A stretch of DNA of 64,000 nt, taken from the NCBI GenBank assembly GCA_026391835.1, contig JAPLDF010000068.1, forward strand, positions 188,101 through 252,100. Direction: 5' to 3'. This DNA is from Bacteroidota bacterium. Its GTDB lineage: Bacteria > Bacteroidota > Bacteroidia > Bacteroidales > FEN-979. Both the position numbers and the translations under genes were made by a program. Of this stretch, positions 34,373 through 57,498 are shown piece by piece (the first letter of the stretch is position 1; the number at the start of each line of letters is the position of its first letter). The notes beneath the pieces were generated by a model. The model was not told the origin of the DNA. It saw only the letters and a list, made by a program, of their open reading frames with translations, and did not search any database.

Positions 34373-34402
34373 GCGGGAGAAGGAACTTGGGAAATCGATG
34401 AC

Positions 34403-35890: not shown

Positions 35891-36122
35891 GGTGGGTGGG
35901 TTGTTGACTGAAATTATGAAAGGCCGGAAAAAATGATTGGTAAAGATAAGCATATATTACATAAACAGCATACCATGGTGCAGCAAAGAAGAAATAACCC
36001 TGCATAAGCATTAAGCCATAACCGGGAAAACAAATTACCAATATGTTTTATTTTGCTATTACACAGGCCTAACATTTTCGTGGCGCGCCGTGTCTTCTCC
36101 GTTTCGGCATTTGGTTGGGGAT

Positions 36123-36609: not shown

Positions 36610-38103
36610 TTATGAGACAACCGGCAATGAAAAGTAAAAGGCAGATCCCTTGTTTTTTTCTGATTCCAGCCTGATTTCTGCGCCCATCAACTTCAGCAAC
36701 CCCCTGGTGATCGACAGCCCCAGCCCGCTCCCTTCGTGGCCACGGGTAAGTGAACCATCTTCCTGCACAAAATGTTCAAAGATGGTTGCCTGTACTTCCG
36801 GGTCGATGCCCGTCCCGGTATCTTTGACAAAGAAATCCAGGGTACCTTCCTTTTTTTCAAAGCCAAACGAAACAGTGCCCCGGCTTGTAAATTCAATGGC
36901 ATTGCCGATGAGGTGCGAGAATACTTTTCGCAGCATTTCGGCATCGGATTTCACATGGTAGCTCCCGGCATCCGGTGGCAGGAGAAGCTCCATGACCAGG
37001 CCCGCGGCGGCAAAGGCAGGCCTGAACTGGTCACCCATCTCAATTAACAATTTTTCAGGAGCAAATACCGTTTCCTTCACCGCCAGGTTCCCCGAAACAA
37101 TAAGTGCCGTGTCCATGTAATTTGTGACAGTTTTGATGAGCCGGTCACTGCTCGATTGTAAAATCGCAAAGTATTCTTCCTTTTCCTCCTGCGAAAGGCT
37201 GTCGTCGAGGAGTACCTGGTACATCCCAAGGATTCCGTTCAGCGGGGTGCGGATTTCGTGTGAAATACTGCTGATGAACTCTGTTTTCAGCCGGTCGCTG
37301 GCCTCCGCCCGCTCCTTTGCCGCCTTCAGTTCGGAGATCATCGCTTTTTTCCCGGTTACATCCTCCTTAATGGCAACATAGTGGGTGATGCTCCCGCCTG
37401 CGTCGAATACAGGTGAAATGGCCACCGACTCCCAGTAAAGCTCACCGGTTTTCTTCCTGTTGTGAAATTCTCCATGCCACTGGTTGCCTGCACTGATGGT
37501 ATCCCAGAGGTCCTTGTATACAATGTACGGAACTTCGCCCGACTGCAAGACACGCGGATTTTTACCCAGGAGTTCCTCACGGCTGTAGCCGGCCGTTTCA
37601 CAAGCCCAGGGGTTGACAAATTCAATATTGCCATCACGGTCGGTGATCACGATGGAAACAGAACTTTGTTCCACCGCACGGGAGAGTTTCCTTCGTTCAT
37701 TCTCGGCAAGATTTTTTTCGCGGAGCAGTGCTGCTTCATGCAGCGCTCTTTTAATGGCCGGCACGAGGCGCTGCAATTTTGTTTTGAACACATAATCAAC
37801 TGCCCCGTTCAGCAGGGATGCGATGGCGGCATCTTCACCCATCACCCCGCTAACAAAGATAAACGGCACCTCGGAGTACCTGCTCTTTACCAGGGCAAGG
37901 GCATCTGTTCCCGAATAGTCAGGAAGTTCATAATCAGACAGGACAATATCTATTTTCTTCTCTTCCAGCGCTTTGATAAAAGCAGCCGCCGAGTCGGCAA
38001 AGTGATAGTCGAACGAGTCAAATCCCTTTTTGATTTCAGCTTTTACCAAAATTGAATCGGCAAGCTGGTCCTCGAGGTGCAGGATGCATATCTTGTTCTC
38101 CAT
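36610..38103 (-). CDS. hybrid response-regulator receiver / PAS / histidine kinase
   Basis: REC domain (DIVLSDYELPDYSG), a PAS domain (GKNPRVLQSG...W.GEFHNRKKTGE), H-box ISHEIRTPLN and an HATPase domain. The likely start is ATG 38103 (MENKICIL). Confidence 0.85.
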   Translation of the reverse strand: MENKICILHLEDQLADSILVKAEIKKGFDSFDYHFADSAAAFIKALEEKKIDIVLSDYELPDYSGTDALALVKSRYSEVPFIFVSGVMGEDAAIASLLNGAVDYVFKTKLQRLVPAIKRALHEAALLREKNLAENERRKLSRAVEQSSVSIVITDRDGNIEFVNPWACETAGYSREELLGKNPRVLQSGEVPYIVYKDLWDTISAGNQWHGEFHNRKKTGELYWESVAISPVFDAGGSITHYVAIKEDVTGKKAMISELKAAKERAEASDRLKTEFISSISHEIRTPLNGILGMYQVLLDDSLSQEEKEEYFAILQSSSDRLIKTVTNYMDTALIVSGNLAVKETVFAPEKLLIEMGDQFRPAFAAAGLVMELLLPPDAGSYHVKSDAEMLRKVFSHLIGNAIEFTSRGTVSFGFEKKEGTLDFFVKDTGTGIDPEVQATIFEHFVQEDGSLTRGHEGSGLGLSITRGLLKLMGAEIRLESEKNKGSAFYFSLPVVS

Positions 38104-38113
38104 GGTGTAAGGC

Positions 38114-41100
38114 TCAGGCTGGCAAGGTAAAGAAAAAAGTTGAACCCTTTTCCACTTCTCCCGTGGCACCACAATATCCCCCGTGGCGGGTTACAATGCT
38201 GTTTACATTGGCCAGCCCTACACCGATGCCTTCAAAATCGCCGGGCCGGTGCAACCGCTTGAACACACCAAAGAGCCGCCCTGCAAATTGCATGTCAAAC
38301 CCTGCCCCATTGTCTTTTACAAAATAAGTAATCTTGCCATCCTGTTTTGTGCTCCCGATTTCAATGAAGGCTTCCGGCTTTTTGCCTGTATATTTTATCG
38401 CGTTCGAAATCAGGTTGACCCATACCTGCCTGATAAGTTGTTCATCACCCCGGCTGTCATGAACCGTTCCGATGGTGAACGAAACAGCCCTGTCGCGGGT
38501 TTCCGGTTCAAAAAAACTGATAACCTGCTTGACCAGCGAAGCGTTGTTGATATTGGTTTTTCGCAATTCGGCACGGTTGAGCTTTGAGAAAGAGAGCAAC
38601 GCATCAATGAGCAGGCTCATTTCTGAAGAACCCTTTGAAATGATATCCATATATTGAAGTTCCTCAGGGGAATTTCCCGTTTTCAGTTCCTTCAACAGGC
38701 CTATAAAGCCGTTGATATGACGCAGCGGGGCCCGCAAATCGTGTGAAATCGAATAAGAAAATGCGTCCAGTTCCTTGTTGGCGGCCTCAAGCTGGGAGGT
38801 GCGTTCATCCACCCGCAATTCAAGCTCTGCGTTTAATTCATGCAGCTGTTCCGCAGCATATTTTCGCTCGGTGATGTCGGAATCGGCACCCAGGTATCCA
38901 AGCAAACCGCCATGCTCATCAAGGATGGGGATGCCGTTGGTACTCACAAAAATCCGGGTACCATCAGGTTTCAGGATTAGGTTCACGAAGTCGCAGAAAC
39001 GCTCTTTTCGGCTGAACATCTCAAGGGCCGCAGCCTTGAATTGCTCCCTTTGATATTCGGGGTGCAGCTCATAGAAATGAAGTTTCCCGACCATCTGATC
39101 GGGGGTATAGCCATATACTGGCAAGGCCAGCGGGCTTACATAGGTGTACAACCCGGCAGCGTCAACTTCCCAGACAACCTCATGGCTCTGCTCGACTACC
39201 TGCCGGAACCGCTCTTCGCTTTTTTCAAGTTGCAGCCGGGCCTGCTTTGTTTCGGTAATGTCCCTGAATACCCCGTATGCACCAAGGTAATTGCGGTGCT
39301 CATCGAATTTTGGCGAAGTACTGACATTGAGGAATTTTTCAGTGCCTTTTTTCGTAACGATTTGAATTTCATAGGCGCCTGTAAGTCCACCCTTCCTGAA
39401 CTGTGTCTGCTGCCTGATTTTTTCAGTTTCACCGGGTGTTAAAAAATCGAACAACGAAGTTCCGACCAGTTCGCCGTCACCTGTCTCAAAGATCTTTTCG
39501 GCAGCGGGATTGGCAAATTCAAAAATTTCATTGTTATCGGTAAAACCTATTCCTTCGGCCTGGAACTGAATAATTTCTTTAAATCTCTTCTCGCTCTCTT
39601 CGGTTTTTTCCCTTGCTTTTTCCAGTTCCTCTTCAACCTGTTTCCGGTGGGAAATATCGCGGATGATAAAAAGCATGCTGGTGGGTTTCCCTTCGGCATT
39701 CCTGATAAACTCTGTATTGACCTCCACATCAAAAATACTTCCGTCGGACTTTACACCATGGAATTCACCCAGGCCGCTGGAAAGGCCCTGGTGCATTCGG
39801 GCAATCTCCGTCTGGGCCGCCCGGTAATCATCGGGAATGAGGAACTCAAGGATATTGCGGTTAAACAATTGTTCACTGTTTTCGTAGCCAAACATCGTCA
39901 ACGCCTTGGGGGAGGTGAAGAGGATGTTTCCCTCCAAATCGGCAATGGTGATGTCGTCGGGCGAAGCGTTGAGGATGGAACGGTAAAGTGCTTCACTCTT
40001 ATGAAGGACATCCTCTGTTTGTTTTCGCTGGGTGATGTCCTGCCCTTGTGCGATGGTTGCGATAGGTGTGACACCATCGGGTGCGAAGAGGGTTGCGGAA
40101 TTCCAGAGCACAATCCGTACAGAATTGTCGCGGTGCAGGATCCTGATCTCAACCGATTCCCACCGCTGGCCGGTTGAAGTATGCCGGATAAGGGCCATCG
40201 AATGTTCCACAAATCCAGGCGGAAAAAGAATTTTCAGCGATTTTCCGCGCACTTCCGCCTCGGTGCGGCCGGTGAGGAATTCAAAGGCGTGGTTGAAGCG
40301 GGTGATGCATAGTTGCGGGTTCCAGACAATGATGGGGGCATTGGCATAGTTGATCAGGTTTTCGAGATAGGCATTGGTTTCCCACAGGGACTGTTCGCCC
40401 TTTTTTCTTTCGGTGATATCGTTGATGCTCGAAAGAATGAAGGGCTCATTGTTCAACTGAATAACCTGGGAGGAGACCAGCCCTGTCAGGATCTGGCCAT
40501 CCTTTTTACGGAACAGGTTTTCCATTCCTGAAACATCCCTGCCTGCTTTCAGTTCCGCTATCACCTTGTCACGATCACTGATATCTGCCCAGAGTTTCAG
40601 CCCGACGGATGAATCATTCATCGCTTCTTCCTTTGTATAACCGGTAATCGCAGTAAACGCACGGTTGACTTCGATAAACTTCCCGTCTGCCATCCGTGTG
40701 ATGGTAACGGCATAGGGCGCCGTCTGGAAAGCTCTTGCGTATCGTTCTTCGCTCTGTCGCAATAGTTCCTCAGCCTGCTTCCGCATGGTTATGTCAACCA
40801 TTGTCGCAAGGCACTGCCCCCCGCTTCCGGAGAGCCTGCCATCCATGTGCACAGAAATGGGCTGCCGGTCCTCAACCTCAAGCGTCACTTCGCAGGTTGC
40901 ACCTGACATGTCTGTGAATATGGATTGAAAAAAGTCATTAAACAAATGCCGGGTATCGTCAGAAACAAAGAAGGCAAAGGTGCTTCCTGTCAACCGTGAC
41001 GACTCTTTCCCAATCATGCGGGCACATGCGTGGTTTAATTTCAGGATTTCACCGGACGGGGAGAGTACGAGATAACCTGACGGCGCATAATCATACAGTT

Positions 41101-41326
41101 CGGCATATTTTTCGGCTTCATCCTCGGCAATTGACCTTGCCACGAGGAGTTCCTCGTTTTGCAGTTCCAGTTCAATCTGGTTCACCTCAAGTTCATGAAG
41201 AAGTTTGTGCACGCCTGCTTCATCAAGCCGGCCGCCATGTTTCGATACCTTACTTTTCACCAGCGCTTCCGCTTTCCGGCGAAGGTTTGAGGAATCAGTA
41301 TTTTCGTCTTTTTTTGTTGCCTTCAA
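38114..41326 (-). CDS. multi-PAS sensor histidine kinase
   Basis: 1070 aa. It has the N-terminal coiled-coil/PAS cassette, at least five further PAS repeats, H-box ISHDLRAPLR and HATPase G-boxes. It starts 53 nt after the gvpK stop on the same strand. Confidence 0.9.
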   Translation of the reverse strand: MKATKKDENTDSSNLRRKAEALVKSKVSKHGGRLDEAGVHKLLHELEVNQIELELQNEELLVARSIAEDEAEKYAELYDYAPSGYLVLSPSGEILKLNHACARMIGKESSRLTGSTFAFFVSDDTRHLFNDFFQSIFTDMSGATCEVTLEVEDRQPISVHMDGRLSGSGGQCLATMVDITMRKQAEELLRQSEERYARAFQTAPYAVTITRMADGKFIEVNRAFTAITGYTKEEAMNDSSVGLKLWADISDRDKVIAELKAGRDVSGMENLFRKKDGQILTGLVSSQVIQLNNEPFILSSINDITERKKGEQSLWETNAYLENLINYANAPIIVWNPQLCITRFNHAFEFLTGRTEAEVRGKSLKILFPPGFVEHSMALIRHTSTGQRWESVEIRILHRDNSVRIVLWNSATLFAPDGVTPIATIAQGQDITQRKQTEDVLHKSEALYRSILNASPDDITIADLEGNILFTSPKALTMFGYENSEQLFNRNILEFLIPDDYRAAQTEIARMHQGLSSGLGEFHGVKSDGSIFDVEVNTEFIRNAEGKPTSMLFIIRDISHRKQVEEELEKAREKTEESEKRFKEIIQFQAEGIGFTDNNEIFEFANPAAEKIFETGDGELVGTSLFDFLTPGETEKIRQQTQFRKGGLTGAYEIQIVTKKGTEKFLNVSTSPKFDEHRNYLGAYGVFRDITETKQARLQLEKSEERFRQVVEQSHEVVWEVDAAGLYTYVSPLALPVYGYTPDQMVGKLHFYELHPEYQREQFKAAALEMFSRKERFCDFVNLILKPDGTRIFVSTNGIPILDEHGGLLGYLGADSDITERKYAAEQLHELNAELELRVDERTSQLEAANKELDAFSYSISHDLRAPLRHINGFIGLLKELKTGNSPEELQYMDIISKGSSEMSLLIDALLSFSKLNRAELRKTNINNASLVKQVISFFEPETRDRAVSFTIGTVHDSRGDEQLIRQVWVNLISNAIKYTGKKPEAFIEIGSTKQDGKITYFVKDNGAGFDMQFAGRLFGVFKRLHRPGDFEGIGVGLANVNSIVTRHGGYCGATGEVEKGSTFFFTLPA

Positions 41327-41379: not shown

Positions 41380-41727
41380 TTACATCAGGTCGCCCAGCGG
41401 GCCAAGGTTGATGTTTAAATCCCTGTCGGTCAGGTTAAAATGCTTTTTCATCTCTTCCATTTTCAGTTCCAGTTTCATCAGGGTTTCTCCCAGCCGTTCT
41501 ATTTCGGTATCGGTCAATGTTCCGCCATCGACTCTTCGCATAGCCTGTTTTTCAACAAGTTTTCGGATGAGTTCAACCAGGGTGAGTACCAGTTTTGCCA
41601 ACCCCGAATCGGCATTGTCGGGCGTGAGTTTCAGTTTTGATTTTTCCGGATTGGCGGTAAAATTCCCGATCTCCCCCGAAAGATCATCGAGCGATCCTGT
41701 ATTGAAAAGTATTTTGTTTTCACTCAT
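41380..41727 (-). CDS. gvpK: gas vesicle protein K
   Basis: LAKLVLTLVELIRKLVEKQAMRRVDGGTLTDTEIERLGETLMKLE...LNINLGPLGDLM matches the GvpK consensus pattern. Confidence 0.9.
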   Translation of the reverse strand: MSENKILFNTGSLDDLSGEIGNFTANPEKSKLKLTPDNADSGLAKLVLTLVELIRKLVEKQAMRRVDGGTLTDTEIERLGETLMKLELKMEEMKKHFNLTDRDLNINLGPLGDLM

Positions 41728-41741
41728 TTCGGTATATGCCG

Positions 41742-42500
41742 TTATTTTATATCCAAATCAACAAAATTGTAGGGTGGCCATGGCCCGGTGAGGATAAATC
41801 TCAGCCCGGCGTTCTGGCGTTGCAAATCCTTTACAACCTGGATCAGTTCAGCTTTTTTATCCCTTTCAAGTAAAAAAACCGCATCGATGATCAGGGCCTC
41901 TGATACCATCTTTTTGAAATTGTTCACAGCACCCAGGTGTTCCAGGCGACCGGCGATTTCAGTGATGACAGCATCGACATAGGCCAGCATCGATTCTTCA
42001 AGCCTGTGTTCGGCAAGTTTTTTATCCAGGTAATCGCGGTATACCGAATTTTTGATTTCCGGGGAGGGTTTGAGGTGCATTTTCTCACCGGCCCCGGATT
42101 TCAGCCGCAGTTCCTCCATCAGTTTCCCTGAATCACAAAACACCTTCAGCCCAAACTCATATTTGTTTTCGACCTTCAGCAGGTTCTGTAAAATTTCATG
42201 ACGGTTCCTTTCAAGCATTTTTACGATCGCATCGGCCGAACCCATCAGGGAGCCAAACCTCACGGGAAGCAGGGTGAATTGCTGGGCGAGGGTATCGATC
42301 ACGCCGGCAAAGGTGAGTGCATTGATTTTATCTGCGATGAGGTTTGCACCCTTCACATTGCTGACAACTGTATAAATATCATCATATGAAACTGCAAAAA
42401 GGTCACACCCCACCACACCCTTCATCCCCATCAGCAGGGCGTTTAGCTTGTCGGAGTTGTTTTTTACAGATACTATTGCATAAGACATCATATTCATCAC
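41742..42500 (-). CDS. GvpF/GvpL family gas vesicle protein (paralogue 5)
   Basis: Central LLPVRFGS block and C-terminal TGPWPPYNFV, which is the family signature. Confidence 0.85.
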   Translation of the reverse strand: MMNMMSYAIVSVKNNSDKLNALLMGMKGVVGCDLFAVSYDDIYTVVSNVKGANLIADKINALTFAGVIDTLAQQFTLLPVRFGSLMGSADAIVKMLERNRHEILQNLLKVENKYEFGLKVFCDSGKLMEELRLKSGAGEKMHLKPSPEIKNSVYRDYLDKKLAEHRLEESMLAYVDAVITEIAGRLEHLGAVNNFKKMVSEALIIDAVFLLERDKKAELIQVVKDLQRQNAGLRFILTGPWPPYNFVDLDIK

Positions 42501-42730
42501 TGCATGGCCTGATTAACCTGTTTGTTCTTTCCCGCGATTGACTGCCCCGACTTCAATTGTTCCATGGTTTCAACAGAACTTAACATCAGCTTTAGTCCCA
42601 GGTATACAAGGTCGACATCAGCGACTGAAATGACAACATCGCCTGTTATGATGACCCCCTTGTTGAGCACCCGGTCGAGTAATTCAAGAATGGTAATTTC
42701 CTTTGACCGGTCAATTTCATTGTCGTACAT
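42497..42730 (-). CDS. GvpA-family minor protein (GvpJ/M/S-like)
   Basis: 77 aa. ITILELLDRVLNKGVIITGDVVISVADVDLVYLGLKLMLSSVETM is a GvpA-fold core. Confidence 0.8.
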   Translation of the reverse strand: MYDNEIDRSKEITILELLDRVLNKGVIITGDVVISVADVDLVYLGLKLMLSSVETMEQLKSGQSIAGKNKQVNQAMQ

Positions 42731-43524
42731 TATTGTTTTTCTTTTATTGAGATAAAGCTGAATGGTGGCCAGGGACCCGTTGCCTCAACAGAAATTCCGG
42801 TATTCCGGCCTTTGCTGCGCAGGGCATCAGCAACACTGCAGAAACCAGCCACCCTGCTTTTATCAACCAGGAAAGTGGCATTGAGGATCATCGTATCTTC
42901 CCTGCCCGTAAACTCTTTCGGGATCAGGTTGCTGATCTTTGTTGATTCGCTCAGGTTTTTAAATTCCACAAAATATTCATGCCCGTATCTCTTGCAAAGC
43001 CGGTCAATCTCATTTTCGATCAGTTCGTTTTTTTTCCGGCCCAGCAGGAATGCTTTTCCCGGCGAACTTGCCCTGATCTGCACTTCCATTGCAGCAGCTT
43101 CCGCGCTCAGTTCGTCAATTTTTTCGTTCAGCGCCTTGCGATCGCAGTAAATTTTAACCGACCATTCCTCTTTGCCCCTGATATTCAGGAAGTTTTCGGC
43201 CAGGGAGGCTGAGTAATCCGCAACGAATTGTTTCAGGCTGGCCTCCGTCTGATAGATCGTACCAAATTTAAAAGGGATGACCGCGCCCTGCTCCATGACC
43301 ATCAGGATTACCTCGATGTGTTCCCTGGCATTTTTTTCTAGCCACTGAATATCCGATACATTTTGCCTGAAATTCGCTTCAGAGAAACCATCTTCAGAAA
43401 CCAGTTTTACGATCACGGTAAAACCACCCGACACGACAAATTTCACCCCCCTGGCTTCAAACCTGCCGGTTTCCCGGGGGAGCGCCTCAGCAATGCAGTA
43501 CACATATATCAGGTTGCCTGTCAT
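42730..43524 (-). CDS. GvpF/GvpL family gas vesicle protein (paralogue 4)
   Basis: N-terminal LIYVYCIAE, central VIPFKFGT and C-terminal TGPWPPFSF. Confidence 0.85.
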   Translation of the reverse strand: MTGNLIYVYCIAEALPRETGRFEARGVKFVVSGGFTVIVKLVSEDGFSEANFRQNVSDIQWLEKNAREHIEVILMVMEQGAVIPFKFGTIYQTEASLKQFVADYSASLAENFLNIRGKEEWSVKIYCDRKALNEKIDELSAEAAAMEVQIRASSPGKAFLLGRKKNELIENEIDRLCKRYGHEYFVEFKNLSESTKISNLIPKEFTGREDTMILNATFLVDKSRVAGFCSVADALRSKGRNTGISVEATGPWPPFSFISIKEKQ

Positions 43525-43808
43525 GACTGTGAAGTGCTATCCATGCCCTCGAAGGAGTTAAGCCGTTCAAAAGAGGTGATCTCAAGCTGCTCATCCATTT
43601 TAACCATATAAAACAGCCTGACCTGTTTCGGTGGAAGGTTCATTGATTTCAAAAAGGAGTCGTTCTCATATACCTCCGCAATGGAATTCCAGCTTTCCTG
43701 TACTTTTTCAATCTTTATGACCGTTACATCATAACAGTTAATGTTCTCTTTCAGAAACTTAACCACTGTTTTCTTAACGTCAATAATATTTCCCATCGGT
43801 TCCTCCAA
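43521..43808 (-). CDS. putative GvpO-like gas vesicle accessory protein
   Basis: 95 aa. The pattern W..IAEVYE...YMVKMDEQLEITSFER resembles the W..VVEV.ER...YE..LD core that I recall for GvpO. The call is supported by position in the cluster only. Confidence 0.4.
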   Translation of the reverse strand: MEEPMGNIIDVKKTVVKFLKENINCYDVTVIKIEKVQESWNSIAEVYENDSFLKSMNLPPKQVRLFYMVKMDEQLEITSFERLNSFEGMDSTSQS

Positions 43809-43826: not shown

Positions 43827-44063
43827 TTACCTGTTTTGTTTTTCTTCCCTGATTTGTTCCAGCAATTTCAACAATTCATCTTCCCGCCTGTCGTACTCCT
43901 CCTCGTCGATTTCGTCCATTTCAAACTTTAACTGCAAGCCCATCAGCCGTTCCTTGATGGCTCCTTCATCCGACATTTCCCGGTCGATCACCTCATTTAT
44001 CTTCTTCCCGATAAAAATTACGCCTTTCAGCGGTGCCAGAAGGATATCATCGATTAAAAACAT
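43827..44063 (-). CDS. gvpG: gas vesicle protein G
   Basis: MFLIDDILLAPLKGVIFIGKKINEVIDRE...EEYDRREDELLKLLEQI is the typical GvpG pattern. The start was chosen at ATG 44063. The ORF track starts at 44090. Confidence 0.8.
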   Translation of the reverse strand: MFLIDDILLAPLKGVIFIGKKINEVIDREMSDEGAIKERLMGLQLKFEMDEIDEEEYDRREDELLKLLEQIREEKQNR

Positions 44064-44064
44064 G

Positions 44065-44847
44065 CTACACTCCTTTTGTTTTGATGACAAGGTTCACAAA
44101 ATTATACGGAGGCAGGGTGCCTACGTATTTGAAGGTCATTAATGCCCCGTATTTTTCGTCGAGGTCGTTTACCGCCTTGTCGAAATCAGGTTCCGAAATG
44201 TTTTTAATCAGGAAGGCCGCATTGATGATCATCATCTCGCCATAGTTCTCGTTTATTTTCGTGTCGTCGCAAAGCGGGGTGAGAACATCGAGGATTGTTT
44301 TTTTATAATTCTCCGTCTCCTTTTTCAATGCTTCGGCCACCATTTCGCCGATTTTCATACGCTGGTAATGTGTTTTATCGACCGGCAGGTTCATCAGCTT
44401 TCCACGCATCGTCCTTATTTCATCATATTTTTCAACAATACTTTCATACATGGGCGCTTCGTGGGCAAGTACCTTGAGCCCCAGCTCTTTTTTCCCGTCC
44501 ATTTTATTCAGCAGGTCGTCGAATTTCCTGTACTCCTGTTCAAGGATCTTCAGGAGCCCTGAATCATCGCTGTATTCGGAGATGGTTGAAAACCTCACCG
44601 GGAGTACCGTGAACTGCCTCATCACCTCCTCGAGTACTTTTTCATGGGTGGTCATGTTTATTCTCCGGGCTTCATACTGGATGACCGGCGAATTGCTGAC
44701 GATGGCGCTGATATCCCTGTAATTGATACCGTATACCGCATCGGCGCGTTTTCCGATGCCGATAGGGCCGAATTCAATCGGGCCTGCATGCCTGATGATC
44801 CCGTAAATGTACTTTCCCTCCTTTGGTATTTCCTGTTCGCTGCTCAT
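44065..44847 (-). CDS. GvpF/GvpL family gas vesicle protein (paralogue 3)
   Basis: GKYIYGIIRH...ISAIVSNSP...VLPVRFST...GTLPPYNFV. Confidence 0.85.
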   Translation of the reverse strand: MSSEQEIPKEGKYIYGIIRHAGPIEFGPIGIGKRADAVYGINYRDISAIVSNSPVIQYEARRINMTTHEKVLEEVMRQFTVLPVRFSTISEYSDDSGLLKILEQEYRKFDDLLNKMDGKKELGLKVLAHEAPMYESIVEKYDEIRTMRGKLMNLPVDKTHYQRMKIGEMVAEALKKETENYKKTILDVLTPLCDDTKINENYGEMMIINAAFLIKNISEPDFDKAVNDLDEKYGALMTFKYVGTLPPYNFVNLVIKTKGV

Positions 44848-45645: not shown

Positions 45646-46686
45646 CTACTCCTTAATTTTTACTAAAATCAAATTCCCGGCCACGTCTTCCTTTGCCAGG
45701 GATATCAGGTCCTCTTTGACAGACTGCCTTACCGATGCCGAATAATCAAGCAGGGAGTGGTAGGCATCAATGATCATGTTAAAGTTTTCGACATCATCGG
45801 AATTGAGGTTGTTGTCGGGATGGAACAACTTTGCCCTTTCGAGGTATGCCTTTTTTATCTCCTGCTCGGTAATCCTTTCCTTTACGCCCAGGGCCCTCCT
45901 TGCCTGGTCAACCCTCCTGGCATTCAGTTCAATAACTTCAAGTGTAAAAAAACTGTAACAGGGTAGCGGGCCTACCAGCTTGAAATTCAACGTTCCCCGG
46001 TATTCTTCATCCAGCAGGTCAATGGCATGCTCGAACTTTTCCTTCTTGTTGCGGTTTATTAAAAATGCCGCATTGACCACCATCTCGTCGTTCATCACTT
46101 CATGCATTTTGATATCAAGTCCATATGGCGATAAGGCATCCAGTATTTTCAGTTCAACGTCTTTATTTTTCGCCTCAACAATATCCTTGATCAGCATCCC
46201 CACTTTCACCTGGTCTACTTTTGTGACGTTGCCGTTTTTTTGTAAAATTTCGGCCTTCATGGCACGGATGTCCGGAAGGGAAGAAATGGCTCCCAGTATC
46301 CCCGGGAAATCCGCCCAGGTTATGACCAGGTCGATTTCCGTCAGGTACTCGATTTTCTTCAGGGCATCAATGATCAGGTCATGGCCGCATGTAAGGACCT
46401 TCAGCACCTCATCTATTGAGTTTACGATCGTGCCAAGCCGCATGGGGAGGATCATGGTGAATCCTTTACCCTGCAACTCTTCTATGATCTCCTGGTGATG
46501 AACCAGCAGGTATCCCAGGGATTCCCGGTCGGAATAGTTGACCTGCGTTCCATCCCTGTCGGAAACAATCGCCGATATGTTTTGAAAAGTGATGGCGTAA
46601 ACCCCCGAATTTTCAAGTGATTGAAAGTGGGTTGTCCCGTAAAAATTCGGCACGATCCCATAGATGTAAATTCCTTTTGCAGCCAT
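45646..46686 (-). CDS. GvpF/GvpL family protein fused to a C-terminal DnaJ J-domain (paralogue 1)
   Basis: Residues 1-250 are GvpF/L-like (IYIYGIVPN...ISAIVSDRD...ILPMRLGT...GPLPCYSF). Residues about 258-314 read ALGVKERITEQEIKKAYLERAKLFHPDNNLNSDDVENFNMIIDAYHSLLD, with an HPD motif at 289-291. Confidence 0.85.
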   Translation of the reverse strand: MAAKGIYIYGIVPNFYGTTHFQSLENSGVYAITFQNISAIVSDRDGTQVNYSDRESLGYLLVHHQEIIEELQGKGFTMILPMRLGTIVNSIDEVLKVLTCGHDLIIDALKKIEYLTEIDLVITWADFPGILGAISSLPDIRAMKAEILQKNGNVTKVDQVKVGMLIKDIVEAKNKDVELKILDALSPYGLDIKMHEVMNDEMVVNAAFLINRNKKEKFEHAIDLLDEEYRGTLNFKLVGPLPCYSFFTLEVIELNARRVDQARRALGVKERITEQEIKKAYLERAKLFHPDNNLNSDDVENFNMIIDAYHSLLDYSASVRQSVKEDLISLAKEDVAGNLILVKIKE

Positions 46687-50463: not shown

Positions 50464-50760
50464 TCATGGTTTATTCATTGCCTCCAGTTTCTCCAGCCGC
50501 GACTCCAGCGCATCCTGTTGCTGCATCAGTTCTTTTTCCCTGGCTTTGGTTGAAAGATAGGTGTCTTCCTGCCACCAGTTTATGCCCATCTCCATCGCCT
50601 TGTCAACCGACGCCACCAGCAACCTGATCTTGATGGTCAGCAGGTCAATATCCGCAATCTGAATTTTAATATCGCCGGCAATCACGATGCCTTTGTCGAG
50701 GACTCTTTCGAGGATATCGGCCAGGCCGGTCGCCTGGATCGAATGGGTAGGTTCTGACAT
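50464..50760 (-). CDS. gvpJ: gas vesicle protein J-like (GvpA family)
   Basis: LADILERVLDKGIVIAGDIKIQIADIDLLTIKIRLLVASVDKAMEMGINWW. Confidence 0.85.
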   Translation of the reverse strand: MSEPTHSIQATGLADILERVLDKGIVIAGDIKIQIADIDLLTIKIRLLVASVDKAMEMGINWWQEDTYLSTKAREKELMQQQDALESRLEKLEAMNKP

Positions 50761-50772
50761 AACAAATTGTTT

Positions 50773-51087
50773 TTAATAATCTATTGACATGGTTTTCCAC
50801 TCCTTTTTATCATCTTTCTTTGATTTCCTGCTCTTTTCCGAGGGCCCAGGTGTATGCATTTCCCCTGCTTTTTCATCATAATATGCCTGGATCTCCTTAA
50901 GTCTGTCCTGGATGATCTCAAGCCTTTGCAAAATCCTGATCTCTTCGCTCTTCAGCCGGGTTCTCTCCTTTTCGAACATATACAGTTTAATAAAATCCGA
51001 ATCCTCCTTGTTTGGAATACCCGATTTAACTACATTCTGCATGCTTTTGATGCTCTGAAGTCCTTTTATTGCGGTGGATATTGGCAT
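50773..51087 (-). CDS. coiled-coil gas-vesicle accessory protein (possibly GvpV-like)
   Basis: 104 aa. LYMFEKERTRLKSEEIRILQRLEIIQDRLKEIQ resembles the pattern I recall for cyanobacterial GvpV. This is weak, memory-based evidence. Confidence 0.35.
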   Translation of the reverse strand: MPISTAIKGLQSIKSMQNVVKSGIPNKEDSDFIKLYMFEKERTRLKSEEIRILQRLEIIQDRLKEIQAYYDEKAGEMHTPGPSEKSRKSKKDDKKEWKTMSIDY

Positions 51088-52340: not shown

Positions 52341-52372
52341 CCAATTTTCAAATTTTCAAATCTTCAAATTTC
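52341..52372. repeat. octamer tandem repeat (CAAATYTT) x4, inverse orientation of the 51093-51140 array
   Basis: ccaatttt caaatttt caaatctt caaatttc. Positions 52348-52369 are the exact reverse complement of 51097-51118. Confidence 0.9.
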
Positions 52373-52682
52373 AACAGACACCCCGGCCTTTACATTGGGT
52401 ACAAGGCAGGCCATCGCCCGATTTACCGCTTCCGTTGCATTGCCGGCATTTTTTATTGTTTTCGACATGGTTGTTTCCCTTTCCGCCGCATACGATACAC
52501 GGCACCCTTGCACCCAACGGATTTTTACCGGAACCGTCACAAAACACACACTTTTTCATGGGTTCATCAACCCCAACGCTCCCGGTGCCATTGCAAACGA
52601 GGCATTTTGAGATCGGAGAAAGCAGGTCAAAAGGATCCTTTCCCGTGGCGCTGCAAAACGGACAATTGAATGTTTTTATCAT
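52371..52682 (-). CDS. stand-alone DnaJ-type (CR) zinc-finger protein, six CxxCxGxG repeats
   Basis: 103 aa with CPFCSATG, CLVCNGTG, CVFCDGSG, CIVCGGKG, CRQCNGSG and CTQCKGRG. Confidence 0.7.
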   Translation of the reverse strand: MIKTFNCPFCSATGKDPFDLLSPISKCLVCNGTGSVGVDEPMKKCVFCDGSGKNPLGARVPCIVCGGKGNNHVENNKKCRQCNGSGKSGDGLPCTQCKGRGVC

Positions 52683-52972: not shown

Positions 52973-54193
52973 CTATTTTATCGGATAATAAATATTATCA
53001 ATTTTCTGAACTTTTCCTCCATCGAGCAACGTTTTTGCAGTATACCCGAGCTTCATCCTTGTTTCGCCGAGGGGTTCTTCCATTTCCGAGATCTTAACCC
53101 CCTTGGGATGCTTGTTGATATAATCCAGGACTTTCTGATCCAGTGTTCTGGTATCTGAAAGAACCGCCTTAACTGCTGCAACGGGAGTTTCTTTAACAAC
53201 TTCCGCGGAAGCCTCCTTTTTCACCTCTTTCTTTTCGGTTTTCTTTACGGTCTGCTTCGGTGCGGGGGCAACGCCTGTTTTCCTTACGTGGGCCATTGTT
53301 TCCTGCATTTTATTCCATTCTGCCGAGGCATCAACCCTGTTTTGCAGCAAATCATCCAGCATCCCGGCAGTGGCTTTTTGAACATCCCTGACCTCTTTCT
53401 GAATTCCCTTGATTGAAACATGAATTCCCTTCATGATCGCATTGTAATCGGTGATCCTGTCTGTTTCGCCTTTGGAGAGATCTTTTCTCAGTTTTTGGGC
53501 CATTTTCTGATTTTCCCTCCCGATTTCCGACAGCCTCTTCTGGAAGCCATGCAGCAGTGCCCTGGTATAATCGACTCTTTCACCAAGGTTTTTGCCCAAT
53601 TCCGCTTTCAGTTCTTCCGACATCTCCTTGTGTTCCTTTTCAAACCGGTCGAGCATGTTGTTCGTGTTCAGGAAGATCGTTGAAACCTCATCGTTGATGA
53701 TTTTAATATCGTCGCCGATATTCGACATGAGTGCATCAAACTCCGCCATCCTGTTCTTTTCCTCCTGCATCCTGTCGGCCCGGCCCTGTGCAAAGGTTTT
53801 ATCCAGGTCGTCGGCCATGTGTGCCCGGTCTTTTGTGAATTCGCTGATCATTTTGAAGGTGGAAGTTTGAATGGCCACCACTTCATGCTGAATGGAGGCG
53901 ATTGTTCCATGGATCCCCGACATCAACCCGTTAAAATTGTGCAGCCGTTCTTTCTCCCCGCGCGCAAGACCTTTCCTCAGGGCAGCGGCATTTGCATTCA
54001 ATGCTACAGCCAATTCCATATGATCCTTGCGGAAACCGTCGAGGGTTACCTGGACGTCATTAACAAGTTCTTCATTTTCCCTGATGCGTTGCTTGAACGA
54101 AGCAAGTAACTCTTCTGTCAACACCTTCATGTCTGATGCTAGTCCCATTTGTTTATCTCCTATTTTAAATGAATTTAATGTTTCCTGGGTCAA
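52973..54193 (-). CDS. helical-repeat protein with Lys/Ala/Val linker and C-terminal winged-helix-like domain (GvpC-position protein, long paralogue)
   Basis: 406 aa. Internal repeats are LRKGLARGEKERLHNFNGLMSGIHGTIASIQHEVVAIQ, RADRMQEEKNRMAEFDALMSNIGDDIKIINDEVSTI and LRKDLSKGETDRITDYNAIMKGIHVSIKGIQKEVRDVQ. The tail is LDYINKHPKGVKISEMEEPLGETRMKLGYTAKTLLDGGKVQKI. Confidence 0.7.
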   Translation of the reverse strand: MTQETLNSFKIGDKQMGLASDMKVLTEELLASFKQRIRENEELVNDVQVTLDGFRKDHMELAVALNANAAALRKGLARGEKERLHNFNGLMSGIHGTIASIQHEVVAIQTSTFKMISEFTKDRAHMADDLDKTFAQGRADRMQEEKNRMAEFDALMSNIGDDIKIINDEVSTIFLNTNNMLDRFEKEHKEMSEELKAELGKNLGERVDYTRALLHGFQKRLSEIGRENQKMAQKLRKDLSKGETDRITDYNAIMKGIHVSIKGIQKEVRDVQKATAGMLDDLLQNRVDASAEWNKMQETMAHVRKTGVAPAPKQTVKKTEKKEVKKEASAEVVKETPVAAVKAVLSDTRTLDQKVLDYINKHPKGVKISEMEEPLGETRMKLGYTAKTLLDGGKVQKIDNIYYPIK

Positions 54194-54798
54194 CTGATTT
54201 CCTTAATGATTTGATTTTTAACAATTTTTATGTCTTCAATCCGGATATGATCGCCTTTTTCAAGCAGTCCTTCCAGGCACTCCATCATCCTGTTGTGCAT
54301 GTGCTGAAATTCCAGGAACGTCTTCATCACCGTTTCCTTTCTCGACTCCTGCAATTTTGAAACCTGTGAAAGCTGGTCCTTGATGATGTTAATCTTTTCG
54401 GTAGCATCCTGGGATGCAATATCTTTAATGCCCAGCAGGCTCGCTTTCAGCGATTGGGCAGTCTCTTTCTGCGCTTCAATGAATGAGAGGAACAAACTTT
54501 CGGCGGCCCGTTCTTTTTCATCGAGTGCACAAAGAATGCCTGACATCATTGCGTTGTAATCTTTTTTCCGAAGGGAACCCTTTTTGGCGAGGGTTTCGCA
54601 CAACCTCGAATTCATGATATCCCGCTCCTTTTTCAGATCGTGCAGTGAGTTATGCACATTATCGAACAGGGAGTGGGACGATTCAGTAATGTATTCGGAC
54701 GACTGGAAAGCAGTTTGTATTTTCTGGATGCGGTTTTCGTATGAGGTTATGATGTTGTTGAAAAAACCATCGATGTTTAATTCGGGCAGGGGACTCAT
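54190..54798 (-). CDS. helical-repeat protein, short paralogue of 52973..54193
   Basis: It shares the repeat LRKKDYNAMMSGILCALDEKE. It has a 4-nt overlap with the next gene. The likely start is ATG 54798 (MSPLPEL). The ORF track uses TTG 54804. Confidence 0.65.
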   Translation of the reverse strand: MSPLPELNIDGFFNNIITSYENRIQKIQTAFQSSEYITESSHSLFDNVHNSLHDLKKERDIMNSRLCETLAKKGSLRKKDYNAMMSGILCALDEKERAAESLFLSFIEAQKETAQSLKASLLGIKDIASQDATEKINIIKDQLSQVSKLQESRKETVMKTFLEFQHMHNRMMECLEGLLEKGDHIRIEDIKIVKNQIIKEIS

Positions 54799-54957
54799 AT
54801 TCAATTATTAATTTATTTACAAACAGGGTGTTGGGTTATGGGATGGTTGTGCTGGCTATTCAGGGGCTGAAAAAGAAATTCTTGGTAATCCATGCTTTCA
54901 TGTATTAAACAGGGAAGGATGTCTTAGCAAGAATAGCTGTTAAACTGCAGGACTGCC

Positions 54958-55161
54958 TTATGCGGCTTTTGCAGTCAATCCGATTGCTTCAGCATACTTC
55001 AGGTATGTCTCAACAGAGGCAACAACGATTCTTGCTTCAATTGCAAGCAGTTCGATACCTACCAATGAAACTCTTACCCATGCATCAACTACGACACCTT
55101 TGTCAAGGATACGGTCGATAACTTCTACCAGGCTGGATGATCCGATCGTCTTTTCTACCAT
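54958..55161 (-). CDS. gvpA: major gas vesicle structural protein GvpA
   Basis: 67 aa. [55 protein letters not shown] is near-canonical GvpA. AGGAG lies 9 nt upstream of the ATG. Confidence 0.95.
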
Positions 55162-55487: not shown

Positions 55488-56129
55488 ATGAAGAGATTAT
55501 TATATATCCCGATGCTCCACAATCAAACTGATTTAGGATCACTTGGCGGCAGATTATCCATTGAGGGAGGGAAAAAATATGGAATTTCCAACTGGCAGGA
55601 GCACGTTGAGCAGGTTGATAAATCGTGGCATAGGATAGATGCTGAAATTTCCAGGCTTATCAGGCGCATATCACCCGGCAAGATCAAAATTTACCAGGAC
55701 GGGTTACCGGCGGTTGATGAAGTTGGAAGAAAAATCGTGCAGGAAGCCGCTAAAAGCGGCAGCATAAATTACAGGATCATCGATGACCTGATGGTACGGG
55801 GAGCAAAACTGGAAATCGCTGAAAACAAAGAATTGTTGCTCAGGGAGTATTTTCTTCTGACTGATATAGCGAAGGCTGAAACCCCTGAAGATGCGTTAAA
55901 AGCCTACCAGGATTACCAAAAAGTGGCGCAGGAACTGCTGAATGACCGGGATACCCATATCGCAAACCAGATCAATGCGACACTTGCCAACGGGGAAACC
56001 GGGATTGCATTTTTTGGTGCGGCCCATGCCATCACAGGCAAATTAAACAAAGACATAAAAGTAACTGTCATTCAAATGTTTACCGACGACATTTCTCGGT
56101 TTTTACTTAACAACCCGGGTCAAGCGTAG
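55488..56129 (+). CDS. TraB/GumN/Tiki-superfamily-like protein (hypothetical)
   Basis: N-terminal YIPMLHNQTDLG, with C-terminal NDRDTHIANQINATL...GIAFFGAAHA. This resembles the GxxH ... RDxxM ... G.aH pattern of TraB-family proteins. The start was chosen at ATG 55488. Confidence 0.45.
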   Translation: MKRLLYIPMLHNQTDLGSLGGRLSIEGGKKYGISNWQEHVEQVDKSWHRIDAEISRLIRRISPGKIKIYQDGLPAVDEVGRKIVQEAAKSGSINYRIIDDLMVRGAKLEIAENKELLLREYFLLTDIAKAETPEDALKAYQDYQKVAQELLNDRDTHIANQINATLANGETGIAFFGAAHAITGKLNKDIKVTVIQMFTDDISRFLLNNPGQA

Positions 56130-57498
56130 CGATAGCATACTTTTTAATCTTCCTGCTTAGGGCATCACGGTGTATTCCAAGGGCATTGGCGGCGGCCTGC
56201 TGGTTGTAGTTGGCTTTTTTGAGCGCCTTTTGTATCAGTCGGACCTCGTTGTTTTTCAGGTTCACTGAATCGACTTCATCCGCCGGTGGCGTTTTTATTT
56301 TTGGTGCTACAGGGAAATCATTGGCCCCAAGCGTGTTTCCCTTGCACAAAATGATGGCTCTTTCAGCCAGGTTTTTCAGTTCCCTCACATTTCCCGGGAA
56401 ATCATATTTCATAAGGAGATCAAAAACTTCAGTTGAAACGCGCAGGCTTGGTTTATTGAATTTCGTGGCAAAAACATCGACAAAATGGGTCAGCAGGGGT
56501 TTGATGTCTTCGGGTCTTTCCCTGAGCGCCGGGATATGTATATGCAGCGTATTGAGCCTGTGCAGCAGGTCGAGCCTGAATTTCTTCTTCTCCACCCTTT
56601 TGTTGATGTCATGGTTTGTGGCCGAAATAATACGGAAGTTGGTACGGATCTGGGCTGTATCCCCAACCCTGGTAACCACCTTTTCTTCGGAAGCACGCAG
56701 AATTTTCGCCTGCAGGTTCAAAGGCATGTCAGCGATCTCATCAAGAAAAAGGGTCCCGCCGTTACACAACTCGAAAAAGCCCATTTTATCGGTGATGGCC
56801 CCGGTAAAAGAGCCTTTTTTGTGTCCGAAAAACTCGCTCTCCAACAGCGTTTCCGTAATTGCGCTGCTGTTAACAGCCCCAAAAATATGGTCCTTCCTGA
56901 TGCCTGAATAGTGTATGATCCTGGCAATGTTCTCCTTTCCCGTACCACTCTCCCCGGTGATCAGAACATTGGCGTCGGGATAATTTGCCGCGGCCAGCGC
57001 CTGGTCAAATACTTCCAAAATCTTCGGGCTGACGCCGATAAACTGCCGGTCGATTTTTTCTTCAAGGGATTTTGAGATCAATGAATTTTTCTCTTCCATC
57101 TGCTTCAGCCTTCGCTGCATCTGAAGATATTTCTGGGTGCGCTCAATGGCAATCTGGATGTCGAGGAACCTGAAGGGTTTGCGCAGGTAATCGAACGCAC
57201 CGAGCCGCATGGCTTTGATCACGGTATCCATATCGCCGTGCGCCGAAATGATGATGACTTCCATGAAGGGGTAATCATTTTTCACCTCCTTCAGGATATC
57301 CAGGCCATTTACGCCTGGAAGCCTGACGTCGAGGATGAGGAGGTCGATTGCGTGGCTGGTCAGGATCTTCTTTCCTTCGGCTGCAGTGTTGGCCTCGAAG
57401 GAATCAAAGTTCGAATCCACAAAAAAACCACTCAACTCTTCTGTAAACTGTTTCTCATCATCAAGGATCAGGATCTTTATCTTGTCTTTTCCTTCCAT
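56107..57498 (-). CDS. sigma-54-dependent response regulator (NtrC/Fis family enhancer-binding protein)
   Basis: REC domain (LLILDVRLPGVNG). AAA+ domain with GESGTGKE, the GAFTGA-like loop GSFTGA and ESEFFGH. C-terminal Fis-type HTH NYNQQAAANALGIHRDALSRKIKKY. Confidence 0.92.
   Translation of the reverse strand: MEGKDKIKILILDDEKQFTEELSGFFVDSNFDSFEANTAAEGKKILTSHAIDLLILDVRLPGVNGLDILKEVKNDYPFMEVIIISAHGDMDTVIKAMRLGAFDYLRKPFRFLDIQIAIERTQKYLQMQRRLKQMEEKNSLISKSLEEKIDRQFIGVSPKILEVFDQALAAANYPDANVLITGESGTGKENIARIIHYSGIRKDHIFGAVNSSAITETLLESEFFGHKKGSFTGAITDKMGFFELCNGGTLFLDEIADMPLNLQAKILRASEEKVVTRVGDTAQIRTNFRIISATNHDINKRVEKKKFRLDLLHRLNTLHIHIPALRERPEDIKPLLTHFVDVFATKFNKPSLRVSTEVFDLLMKYDFPGNVRELKNLAERAIILCKGNTLGANDFPVAPKIKTPPADEVDSVNLKNNEVRLIQKALKKANYNQQAAANALGIHRDALSRKIKKYAIATLDPGC

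Follow-up and report, generated by a model that had tools for sequence, protein, structure and literature searches.

How the very hydrophobic and aggregation-prone shell protein GvpA stays soluble and enters the growing gas-vesicle shell is an open question, and the role of the essential proteins GvpF and GvpL (GvpF/L) is part of it. In Halobacterium, GvpF is the only accessory Gvp that binds GvpA, at the N-terminal half, and GvpL binds all the remaining accessory Gvps, F to M (PMC7688916). In the B. megaterium system, the binding of GvpF to GvpA2 is transient, GvpG displaces GvpF, and the authors proposed that GvpF transiently chaperones GvpA; the label "chaperone-like" that GvpF carries in current models comes from interaction data alone (PMC11445434). 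Here, we describe a gene from a Bacteroidota bacterium (GenBank assembly GCA_026391835.1, contig JAPLDF010000068.1, positions 188,101 to 252,100; "the window" denotes this whole stretch of 64,000 nucleotides, and positions are counted from its first letter), the product of which is a GvpF/L protein continued into a J-domain (the GvpF/L-J fusion, or simply the fusion). The characterised GvpF and GvpL proteins are of the same family and fold (TM (template modelling) scores, 0.74-0.78), have the same signature, and share the genomic setting, namely a gvp operon in which gvpA, N, G, J, and K are present. However, they stop at approximately 250 amino acids (aa), whereas the fusion adds the J-domain and a conserved 32-residue tail with an extra beta-strand; the model systems have two GvpF/L proteins, whereas the operon in the window encodes five.

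A J-domain with the HPD tripeptide sets off ATP hydrolysis by Hsp70 upon binding to its ATP state, at the site where the nucleotide-binding domain, the linker, and the substrate-binding domain meet. Class-C J-proteins pick their client or place through a second module. HscB (which brings IscU to HscA), auxilin (clathrin uncoating), Mycoplasma TopJ (terminal-organelle assembly), and DjlA have, like the fusion, an HPD J-domain with a module for the client or the location, and the fusion, like class-C proteins, has neither a glycine/phenylalanine-rich (G/F) region nor the C-terminal substrate domains of DnaJ. The pair of HscB with its dedicated Hsp70, HscA, has a counterpart in some fusion-bearing clusters (not in that of the window). 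The fusion differs from the other class-C proteins in that the targeting module is GvpF/L and in that the J-domain is C-terminal and, in the predicted structure, looped back by a terminal strand. As for the class-A protein DnaJ, its CXXCXGXG zinc finger is also found in the operon of the window, but as a separate polypeptide, with the two genes approximately 6 kb apart and with six motifs instead of the four in DnaJ; C-terminal domains I and II and the dimerisation domain of DnaJ have no equivalent in the fusion.

As for the gene cluster, Castillo & Saier described in 2010 gvp clusters with ArsA and Hsp20 genes in Polaribacter irgensii, Pelodictyon luteolum, and Geobacter uraniireducens (PMC2963123). 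The content of that cluster type (gvpN, four to five L/F genes, G, J, K, M, hsp20, and an arsA homologue) is that of the window; a J-domain, a zinc-finger protein, Cdc48, and Hsp70 are unmentioned there, and the gas-vesicle-linked ArsA is described as a two-domain protein of approximately 600 aa (PMC2963123), whereas that of the window is single-domain and half the size (314 aa). The fusion gene sits in a 19-gene minus-strand operon (from 55161 to 41380), in close proximity to cdc48 on one side and to the next gvpF/L gene on the other.

Domains, predicted fold and family of the fusion

The fusion is encoded by a minus-strand open reading frame (ORF) of 346 aa plus a stop codon, with an ATG start and with neither an internal stop nor a frameshift (for all coordinates, see Table 1). 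With Pfam, GvpL_GvpF matched residues 5-247 (E = 2.2e-46; 159.3 bits against a cutoff of 23.6; profile positions 1-244 of 245), and DnaJ (PF00226) matched residues 265-314 when the whole protein was used (E = 8e-11; 42.3 bits against a cutoff of 27.8); the score of the C-terminal 94 aa by themselves was 45.3 bits. The GPLPxYSF signature of the family is present as GPLPCYSF (residues 239-246). A preliminary description, made from the sequence without database searches, had read residues 1-250 as GvpF/L ending in this motif and had placed a J-domain with an intact HPD at positions 45745-45915. Both statements are borne out, the coordinates being correct, and the doubt expressed there that the C-terminal segment might fall below the threshold for PF00226 is removed. 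In a sequence search of PDB, the N-terminal part matched GvpF of Microcystis (4QSG; E = 1e-17) and Anabaena (6L5D; E = 4e-15), and the C-terminal part matched approximately 28 J-domain chains, including DnaJ in the complex with DnaK (5NRO); the J-domain of the fusion aligns with residues 5-59 or so of DnaJ.

The structure prediction that had been proposed at the same time was performed with AlphaFold2 from a 58-sequence multi-phylum alignment, and both folds were obtained, with a predicted local distance difference test score (pLDDT) of 93.4 and a predicted TM score (pTM) of 0.85. In the model, the GvpF/L fold reaches the strand of residues 248-253. The J-domain follows with helix I (256-266), helix II (274-288), the HPD loop, and a continuous helix III (296-322) with no separate helix IV; then come a short helix and the terminal beta-strand (340-345, LILVKIKE). 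Foldseek against PDB gave GvpF (6L5D_B, E = 5e-15, target TM 0.78; 4QSG, target TM 0.74) and many J-domains with a probability of 1.00 (5NRO_B, target TM 0.76; 7JTK_y, 0.75), and 4J7Z, also a J-domain, was superposed with a root-mean-square deviation of 1.0 Å across 48 columns. The terminal strand motif is retained in all clades (LILVKIKE in the window, LLINIRR in Chloroflexota); judging from the high pTM of the model, the strand probably docks back onto the GvpF/L sheet.

Membership in the GvpL/GvpF family is thus seen in the hidden Markov model (HMM) match, the fold, and the location in a gvp cluster, and membership in the J-domain family in the HMM match, the HPD between helices II and III, and the helical-hairpin fold. 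The DnaJ-family models of NCBIfam touch nothing but the same 50-residue J stretch: the full-length DnaJ models gave at most 33 bits against cutoffs of 338-619 (33 against 377 for one of them), and the models for TopJ, DjlA, and ActJ gave weak matches below their thresholds, in the J-domain part only. The G/F region, zinc finger, and C-terminal substrate domains of class-A and class-B Hsp40 proteins are missing from the fusion. Because only the J stretch matches and these other regions are lacking, the fusion is a class-C (type III) J-domain protein, of which the targeting module is the GvpF/L domain.

Spread and conservation of the fusion family

Close relatives were searched for in a collection of 5.8 billion proteins (best 120 matches), and distant ones were searched for exhaustively among 1.84 billion 50%-identity representatives. 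All of the best 120 matches (59-100% identity; 344-360 aa in length, exactly 346 aa in 100 of them) have both Pfam domains, and the independent contigs of the relatives come from NCBI, JGI, ENA, and Logan assemblies. The exhaustive search gave 182 representatives at E < 1e-30; the best 150 of these, down to 28% identity, are nearly all 330-370 aa long and are aligned through the J-domain. The Lys/Arg ratio across the representatives ranges from 0.12 to 6, which points to very different genomes. At least 360 distinct 90%-identity clusters have both Pfam domains.

Profile searches were also performed from two distant clades, and both domains were present in 120 of the 120 listed matches in each. 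The source labels were Anaerolineae, Dehalococcoidia, Chloroflexi, and Coprothermobacterota for the first clade and Nitrospirae, Omnitrophica, Candidatus Schekmanbacteria (also in UniRef), and Chlamydiota for the second; note that the phylum labels are taken from the names of metagenome-assembled genomes (MAGs), in which mis-binned contigs are possible. Exact cluster look-ups of the distant clades gave mostly unnamed metagenome proteins and added only Lentisphaerota and Prolixibacteraceae bacterium JC049. The reference genomes with full-length matches are MAGs of Bacteroidales, Prolixibacteraceae, Mariniphaga, Draconibacterium, and Maribellus; the closest relatives of the fusion in the window are from freshwater Bacteroidales MAGs (79% identity), and the cultured carriers are Flavobacterium sp. 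LS1P28 and the above-mentioned JC049. The fusion is an old, large, multi-phylum family, already present in NCBI, UniRef, and JGI, rather than a rare oddity of the window. An artefact of assembly, frameshift, or gene calling by which a gvpF/L gene was joined to a separate small J-protein gene, raised earlier as a possible break between residues 250 and 258, is virtually impossible, the frame being continuous, the junction being intact in more than 100 independent contigs, the junction region (248-257) being conserved, and one confident fold crossing it.

The HPD tripeptide is present in 119 of the best 120 close homologues (QPD in the other one), in 136 of the best 150 50%-identity representatives at the aligned position, and in 101 of 101 full-length fusions translated from the genomic and metagenomic loci that we fetched. 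In the 58-sequence alignment, from which representatives already known to have degenerate motifs were left out, full invariance is limited to six columns, half of which are those of H, P, and D. The identity to the protein of the window is 0.57 for the J-domain versus 0.68 for the GvpF/L core among close relatives, and 0.32 versus 0.31 among distant representatives, in which the J-domain is as well conserved as the core. Separately, we noted natural "J-dead" variants (P0127, P0129, P0133, P0137, P0227, P0243, and P0268), a minority that have lost HPD and keep the whole J-like domain and the terminal strand; they could reveal a role of the J-domain other than activation of Hsp70. In two metagenome proteins, P0281 (629 aa) and P0282 (601 aa), the GvpF/L-J fusion is followed in tandem by a second GvpF/L domain, which resembles paralogues 2 and 3 of the window most. 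By the Rosetta-stone type of reasoning, the sequences of these tandem proteins suggest that the fusion may cooperate with another GvpF/L paralogue.

The impression given in the preliminary description that no Gvp-J-domain fusion had been described holds in the searchable full-text literature, in which we found no description of the fusion; because subscription journals are largely outside this search, absence from the literature is not proven. The gvp-linked DnaK paralogue and the zinc-finger gene of gvp clusters are likewise undescribed in the searchable literature, and the main text of a 2023 PNAS survey of 280,000 J-domain proteins has no mention of Gvp. On the other hand, the two-domain architecture is already annotated automatically in public databases. 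The proteins appear there as "GvpL/GvpF family gas vesicle protein", "Gas vesicle synthesis protein GvpL/GvpF/DnaJ domain", "DnaJ-domain-containing protein 1", or "Chaperone protein DnaJ", among other names. Since many sequences already carry the annotation of both domains, the architecture as such is not new to the databases.

Possible recruitment of Hsp70 by the fusion

A dedicated Hsp70/J pair is encoded in nine related loci (L082-L085, L015, L021, L113, L118, and L131), and not in the window. In the gvp operon of a Chloroflexi MAG (L082), which has a zinc-finger gene and an Hsp20 gene, a gene for a 578-aa HSP70 directly follows the final GvpA-family gene. L084 and L085 encode the same Hsp70, which is also present, uncalled, within a 1.75-kb "gap" in L083 (76-81% identity), so that the linkage is seen in 4 of 4 Chloroflexota-type loci; the copy in L083 is possibly truncated. 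With tblastn, Hsp70 was found directly after the gvp genes in the Bacteroidota loci L015 and L021, and the metagenome sample added the Bacteroidota loci L113, L118, and L131. The gene orders of the linkage are three (after gvpK; after the fourth GvpF/L gene and a 227-aa ORF; after a GvpA-family gene), which argues for more than the inheritance of a single accident.

The copies linked to gvp genes (578-622 aa) are diverged DnaK paralogues and lack the canonical acidic EEV-type tail. Those of Bacteroidota (600-622 aa; 79-89% mutual identity) terminate with ...NLSSxCQSAGEYL..., are approximately 70% identical to the 634-aa DnaK of L126, which has the canonical ...DVDFEEVK tail, and keep an Arg aligned with R167 of E. 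coli DnaK as well as the VLLLDV interdomain linker. With NCBIfam, the copy of L015 was assigned to DnaK (950 bits), and the Chloroflexota form gave 749 bits, below the cutoff of TIGR02350. The Hsp70 of L126 itself, considered as a gvp-linked candidate, was set aside as a housekeeping DnaK (canonical tail; 3.7 kb from the cluster).

On the basis of these comparisons, we consider it probable that the fusion acts as a class-C J-protein, the GvpF/L module of which would bring Hsp70 to GvpA-family shell proteins or to the nucleation complex. The preliminary description had proposed direct recruitment of DnaK/Hsp70 to the nascent vesicle or to GvpA-family clients. Recruitment to gas-vesicle assembly has gained strong comparative support from the HPD conserved across phyla and from the gvp-linked DnaK paralogues; that it is direct, with the nascent vesicle or GvpA as the target, is inferred. 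Four steps may be envisaged. Firstly, judging from what experiments in other organisms showed for GvpF and GvpL, the GvpF/L module would bind the hydrophobic GvpA-family shell proteins and/or the nucleation complex of GvpG, J, and K. Secondly, by analogy with established J-domain biochemistry, the J-domain would dock on an ATP-bound DnaK-type Hsp70, hydrolysis would be triggered, and Hsp70 would clamp the client held by GvpF/L. Thirdly, cycling of Hsp70 would keep the shell subunits soluble and assembly-competent; alternatively, Hsp70 would remodel or release assembly intermediates, or extract subunits from a mis-assembled or collapsed shell. Fourthly, the load would probably be shared, with the zinc-finger protein and Hsp20 as holdases, Cdc48 as an unfoldase, and the Get3/ArsA protein as a shield of hydrophobic segments.

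A broader proposal, which we put forward tentatively, is that gvp clusters of the Hsp20/Cdc48 type hold all the genes of an ATP-driven proteostasis machine dedicated to the shell, in which assembly or recycling would be dependent on Hsp70 and the fusion would be the adaptor for the GvpA family. With the same reservation, its parts may be the GvpF/L-J fusion, the zinc-finger holdase, a DnaK of its own (depending on the lineage), the small heat-shock protein (sHsp), Cdc48, and the Get3-like ATPase. Clusters of this type are found in Bacteroidota, Chloroflexota, Omnitrophota, Nitrospirota, and the Planctomycetota-Verrucomicrobiota-Chlamydiota (PVC) group, and the proposal would thus concern a large share of bacterial gvp clusters.

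Several observations weigh against the recruitment of Hsp70 by the fusion. A tblastn search of the 64-kb window with four gvp-linked Hsp70s found no Hsp70, and the partner in the genome of the window would be a housekeeping DnaK or a paralogue encoded elsewhere. Among the 43 loci that contain the fusion and gvpK and extend 2.2 kb or more past the cluster (L082-L084 are outside this count), only six have a same-strand Hsp70 gene with its start under 1.5 kb downstream; for a gene of about one copy per genome, this linkage is far above chance by an informal estimate made on loci that are phylogenetically non-independent. In helix II, K278/K279 align with R22/K23 of DnaJ, and R284 and K286 are close by, but the basic pair K26/R27 of E. 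coli DnaJ is replaced by Leu-Glu (L282/E283); in the consensus lines of other clades, Arg is found at the equivalent positions. Approximately 9% of the 50%-identity representatives have no HPD (RPD, RSD, SRD, NTS, QRS, or QSH instead) and keep the domain, so that in some lineages the J-domain persists without canonical activation of Hsp70. The high pTM of the model suggests that the J-domain is packed at a fixed position on the GvpF/L body. Finally, five GvpF/L paralogues coexist in the operon.

An alternative is that Hsp70 is brought, in the manner of auxilin, to finished intermediates or to a collapsed or mis-assembled shell and not to new subunits; Hsp70 would then remove accessory Gvps such as GvpF/L, G, J, and K as the vesicle grows or, alternatively, feed collapsed GvpA sheets to Cdc48 for recycling. 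The fusion gene is located directly after the gene for the Cdc48-type ATPase in the Bacteroidota and Omnitrophota loci with coverage, and near that for Hsp20, an arrangement which mirrors the established chaperone logic of sHsp, Hsp70/J, and AAA+ disaggregase. Accessory Gvps are scarce in mature vesicles, and thus they must be released (PMC7688916). However, the fusion gene shares its operon with early assembly genes, and all of the sequence evidence is common to this alternative and to assembly-stage chaperoning, the timing being indistinguishable between them. In addition, to our knowledge, no coupling to Hsp70 comparable to that of the M-domain of ClpB is documented for the bacterial Cdc48-type ATPases. 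We regard uncoating or recycling of this type as unlikely.

The J-domain might also be a structural or interaction appendage with no Hsp70 function, bracing the GvpF/L fold, oligomerising with a neighbouring GvpF/L paralogue, or contacting Cdc48 or GvpN. The degenerate HPD in roughly 9% of the representatives, which nevertheless keep the domain, and the QPD in one close homologue are in its favour, as are the high pTM of the model, in which the J-domain seems to be fastened to the body by the conserved terminal strand, the lack of a linked Hsp70 in most clusters, including that of the window, and the existence of the tandem GvpF/L-J-GvpF/L fusions. However, the HPD in 101 of 101 locus-derived fusions and in three of the six invariant columns is hard to explain without coupling to Hsp70. 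Moreover, these clusters repeatedly contain specialised DnaK paralogues, across two phyla and with three gene orders, and, since a housekeeping DnaK is near-universal in bacteria, an unlinked partner is to be expected. A mere appendage is, in our judgement, quite improbable.

With recruitment of Hsp70 as the preferred explanation, the J-domain on a GvpF/L protein makes the idea of GvpF as a chaperone a specific, testable mechanism, for which a point mutant of HPD would be a clean probe. The broader proposal, if true, would give the first defined energy-dependent chaperone step of gas-vesicle biogenesis, and it would suggest a practical reason why the expression of many gvp clusters in heterologous hosts is unsuccessful or toxic. 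The expression of gas vesicles as acoustic reporters in heterologous hosts is limited by proteotoxic stress and cluster failure (PMC12848028). The J-domain, zinc finger, Hsp20, Cdc48, and Get3/ArsA, taken together, suggest that many uncultured bacteria build or recycle gas vesicles by means of a dedicated chaperone suite, which the cyanobacterial, Bacillus, Serratia, and haloarchaeal models lack. The fusion also adds to the prokaryotic class-C J-domain proteins a well-populated subfamily with an identifiable client system.

Other genes of the operon and its flanks

The positions of the fusion, its domains, and the other genes are listed in Table 1. The gene order was near-invariant in 21 reference-genome loci and approximately 45 metagenome loci of judgeable length, and the same order was found again in an Omnitrophota genome; cdc48 is immediately upstream of the fusion gene in all of the listed Bacteroidota and Omnitrophota loci with upstream coverage. 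The Cdc48 ATPase and the single-domain Get3/ArsA ATPase are conserved core members of this type of gvp cluster. These two genes and those for Hsp20 and the zinc-finger protein had been overlooked as context of the fusion in the preliminary description.

Table 1. Positions of the fusion gene and its domains, of the remaining operon genes, and of features in related loci (L numbers; positions within each locus)
Feature	Position	Strand	Basis
GvpF/L-J fusion gene, first of five operon GvpF/L paralogues	45646..46686	-	ORF/translation; Pfam GvpL_GvpF + DnaJ; AlphaFold model
GvpL_GvpF domain, residues 5-247	45946..46674	-	Pfam PF06386; PDB sequence match; Foldseek
J-domain, residues 256-314	45745..45921	-	Pfam PF00226; model secondary structure; Foldseek; PDB sequence matches
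HPD tripeptide H289-P290-D291, helix II/III loop	45814..45822	-	Translation and conservation
Conserved C-terminal tail, residues 315-346	45649..45744	-	Model; strand motif kept in all clades
Canonical gvpA, 67 aa, first operon gene	54958..55161	-	ORF/sequence; syntenic 67-68-aa GvpA gene in related loci
orf204	54190..54804	-	Conserved cluster gene, no Pfam family
orf406	52973..54193	-	Conserved cluster gene, no Pfam family
DnaJ-type zinc-finger protein, 103 aa, six CxxCxGxG motifs	52371..52682	-	Pfam DnaJ_CXXCXGXG, 34 bits (cutoff 32.7)
gvpN-type AAA+ ATPase, 305 aa	51153..52070	-	Pfam AAA_5, 74.6 bits; conserved position
orf104	50773..51087	-	Conserved cluster gene, no Pfam family
GvpA-family protein, 98 aa, GvpJ-like	50464..50760	-	Pfam Gas_vesicle, 62 bits
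Hsp20/alpha-crystallin small heat-shock protein, 182 aa	49863..50411	-	Pfam HSP20, 33.2 bits; position conserved
Single-domain Get3/TRC40/ArsA-family ATPase, 314 aa	48914..49858	-	Pfam ArsA_ATPase, 251 bits; NCBIfam TIGR00345, 244 bits
Cdc48-family double-ring AAA+ ATPase, 719 aa	46737..48896	-	Pfam CDC48_N, CDC48_2, two AAA; NCBIfam TIGR01243, 923 bits
GvpF/L paralogue 2, 257 aa	44871..45644	-	Pfam, 185 bits; start codon one base from fusion stop codon
GvpF/L paralogue 3, 260 aa	44065..44847	-	Pfam, 206 bits
gvpG	43827..44090	-	Pfam GvpG, 71 bits
GvpO-like gene	43521..43808	-	Pfam GvpO, 19.4 bits, below cutoff of 25; same-position gene in Chloroflexota loci called GvpO
GvpF/L paralogue 4, 264 aa	42730..43524	-	Pfam, 173.5 bits
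GvpA-family minor protein, 77 aa, GvpJ/M/S-like	42497..42730	-	Pfam Gas_vesicle, 58.7 bits
GvpF/L paralogue 5, 252 aa	41742..42500	-	Pfam, 146 bits
gvpK, last operon gene	41380..41727	-	Pfam GvpK, 115 bits
gvp-linked Hsp70	L082 15771-17507; L084 14952-16697; L085 16522-18267; L083 15837-17324; L015 14764-16578; L021 14952-16784		
Four-CxxC ORF (examples, among others)	L003 12961-13152; L009 12915-13118; L012 12903-13106; L021 12876-13076		

In Bacteroidota, Omnitrophota (where there are two copies), and Chloroflexota, most clusters with the fusion also have an equivalent of the zinc-finger gene, which in Chloroflexota is directly upstream of the fusion gene; L015, L021, and a subgroup with 339-aa fusions lack it. 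Taken as a pair, the zinc-finger protein and the fusion look like a DnaJ split over two genes. The zinc-finger protein, which consists almost wholly of CxxCxGxG repeats, gave weak matches to anti-TRAP models below the threshold, and it resembles the small CxxCxGxG-repeat proteins such as plastid BSD2 and ORANGE and B. subtilis anti-TRAP, a likeness at the level of motif and domain only; unlike the plastid factors BSD2 and ORANGE, it is bacterial and encoded in a gvp operon. Plastid DnaJ-like zinc-finger proteins are reportedly assembly holdases for one complex (in part from PMC12063368). A rule that the zinc-finger gene is missing where Hsp70 is linked was considered; it holds for L015 and L021 but fails for L113, L118, L131, and the Chloroflexota loci, and it was dropped.

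The product of orf406 is long, charged, and probably helical, and its gene occupies the place at which one might look for an outer-surface protein of the GvpC type. As for a repeat-built analogue of GvpC, a BLASTP self-comparison gave no internal repeats, and no Pfam family was matched. In several related loci, an ORF of 63-78 aa with four CxxC motifs is present on the gene strand near the position of gvpG and gvpO; it may be a real gene or an alternative frame of gvpO.

Upstream of the operon are genes, also on the minus strand, for a response regulator of the sigma-54 activator type (56107-57498) and a 1263-aa multi-PAS hybrid kinase (57507-61298), and downstream (36610-41326 and 31275-35953, minus strand) are those for two PAS histidine kinases, a CheB-CheR fusion, and further PAS proteins. 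These sensory flanks suggest sigma-54-dependent, signal-controlled buoyancy. A sigma-54 activator is also encoded upstream in the Omnitrophota locus L081, and the flanks in the window hold glycosidase genes as well.

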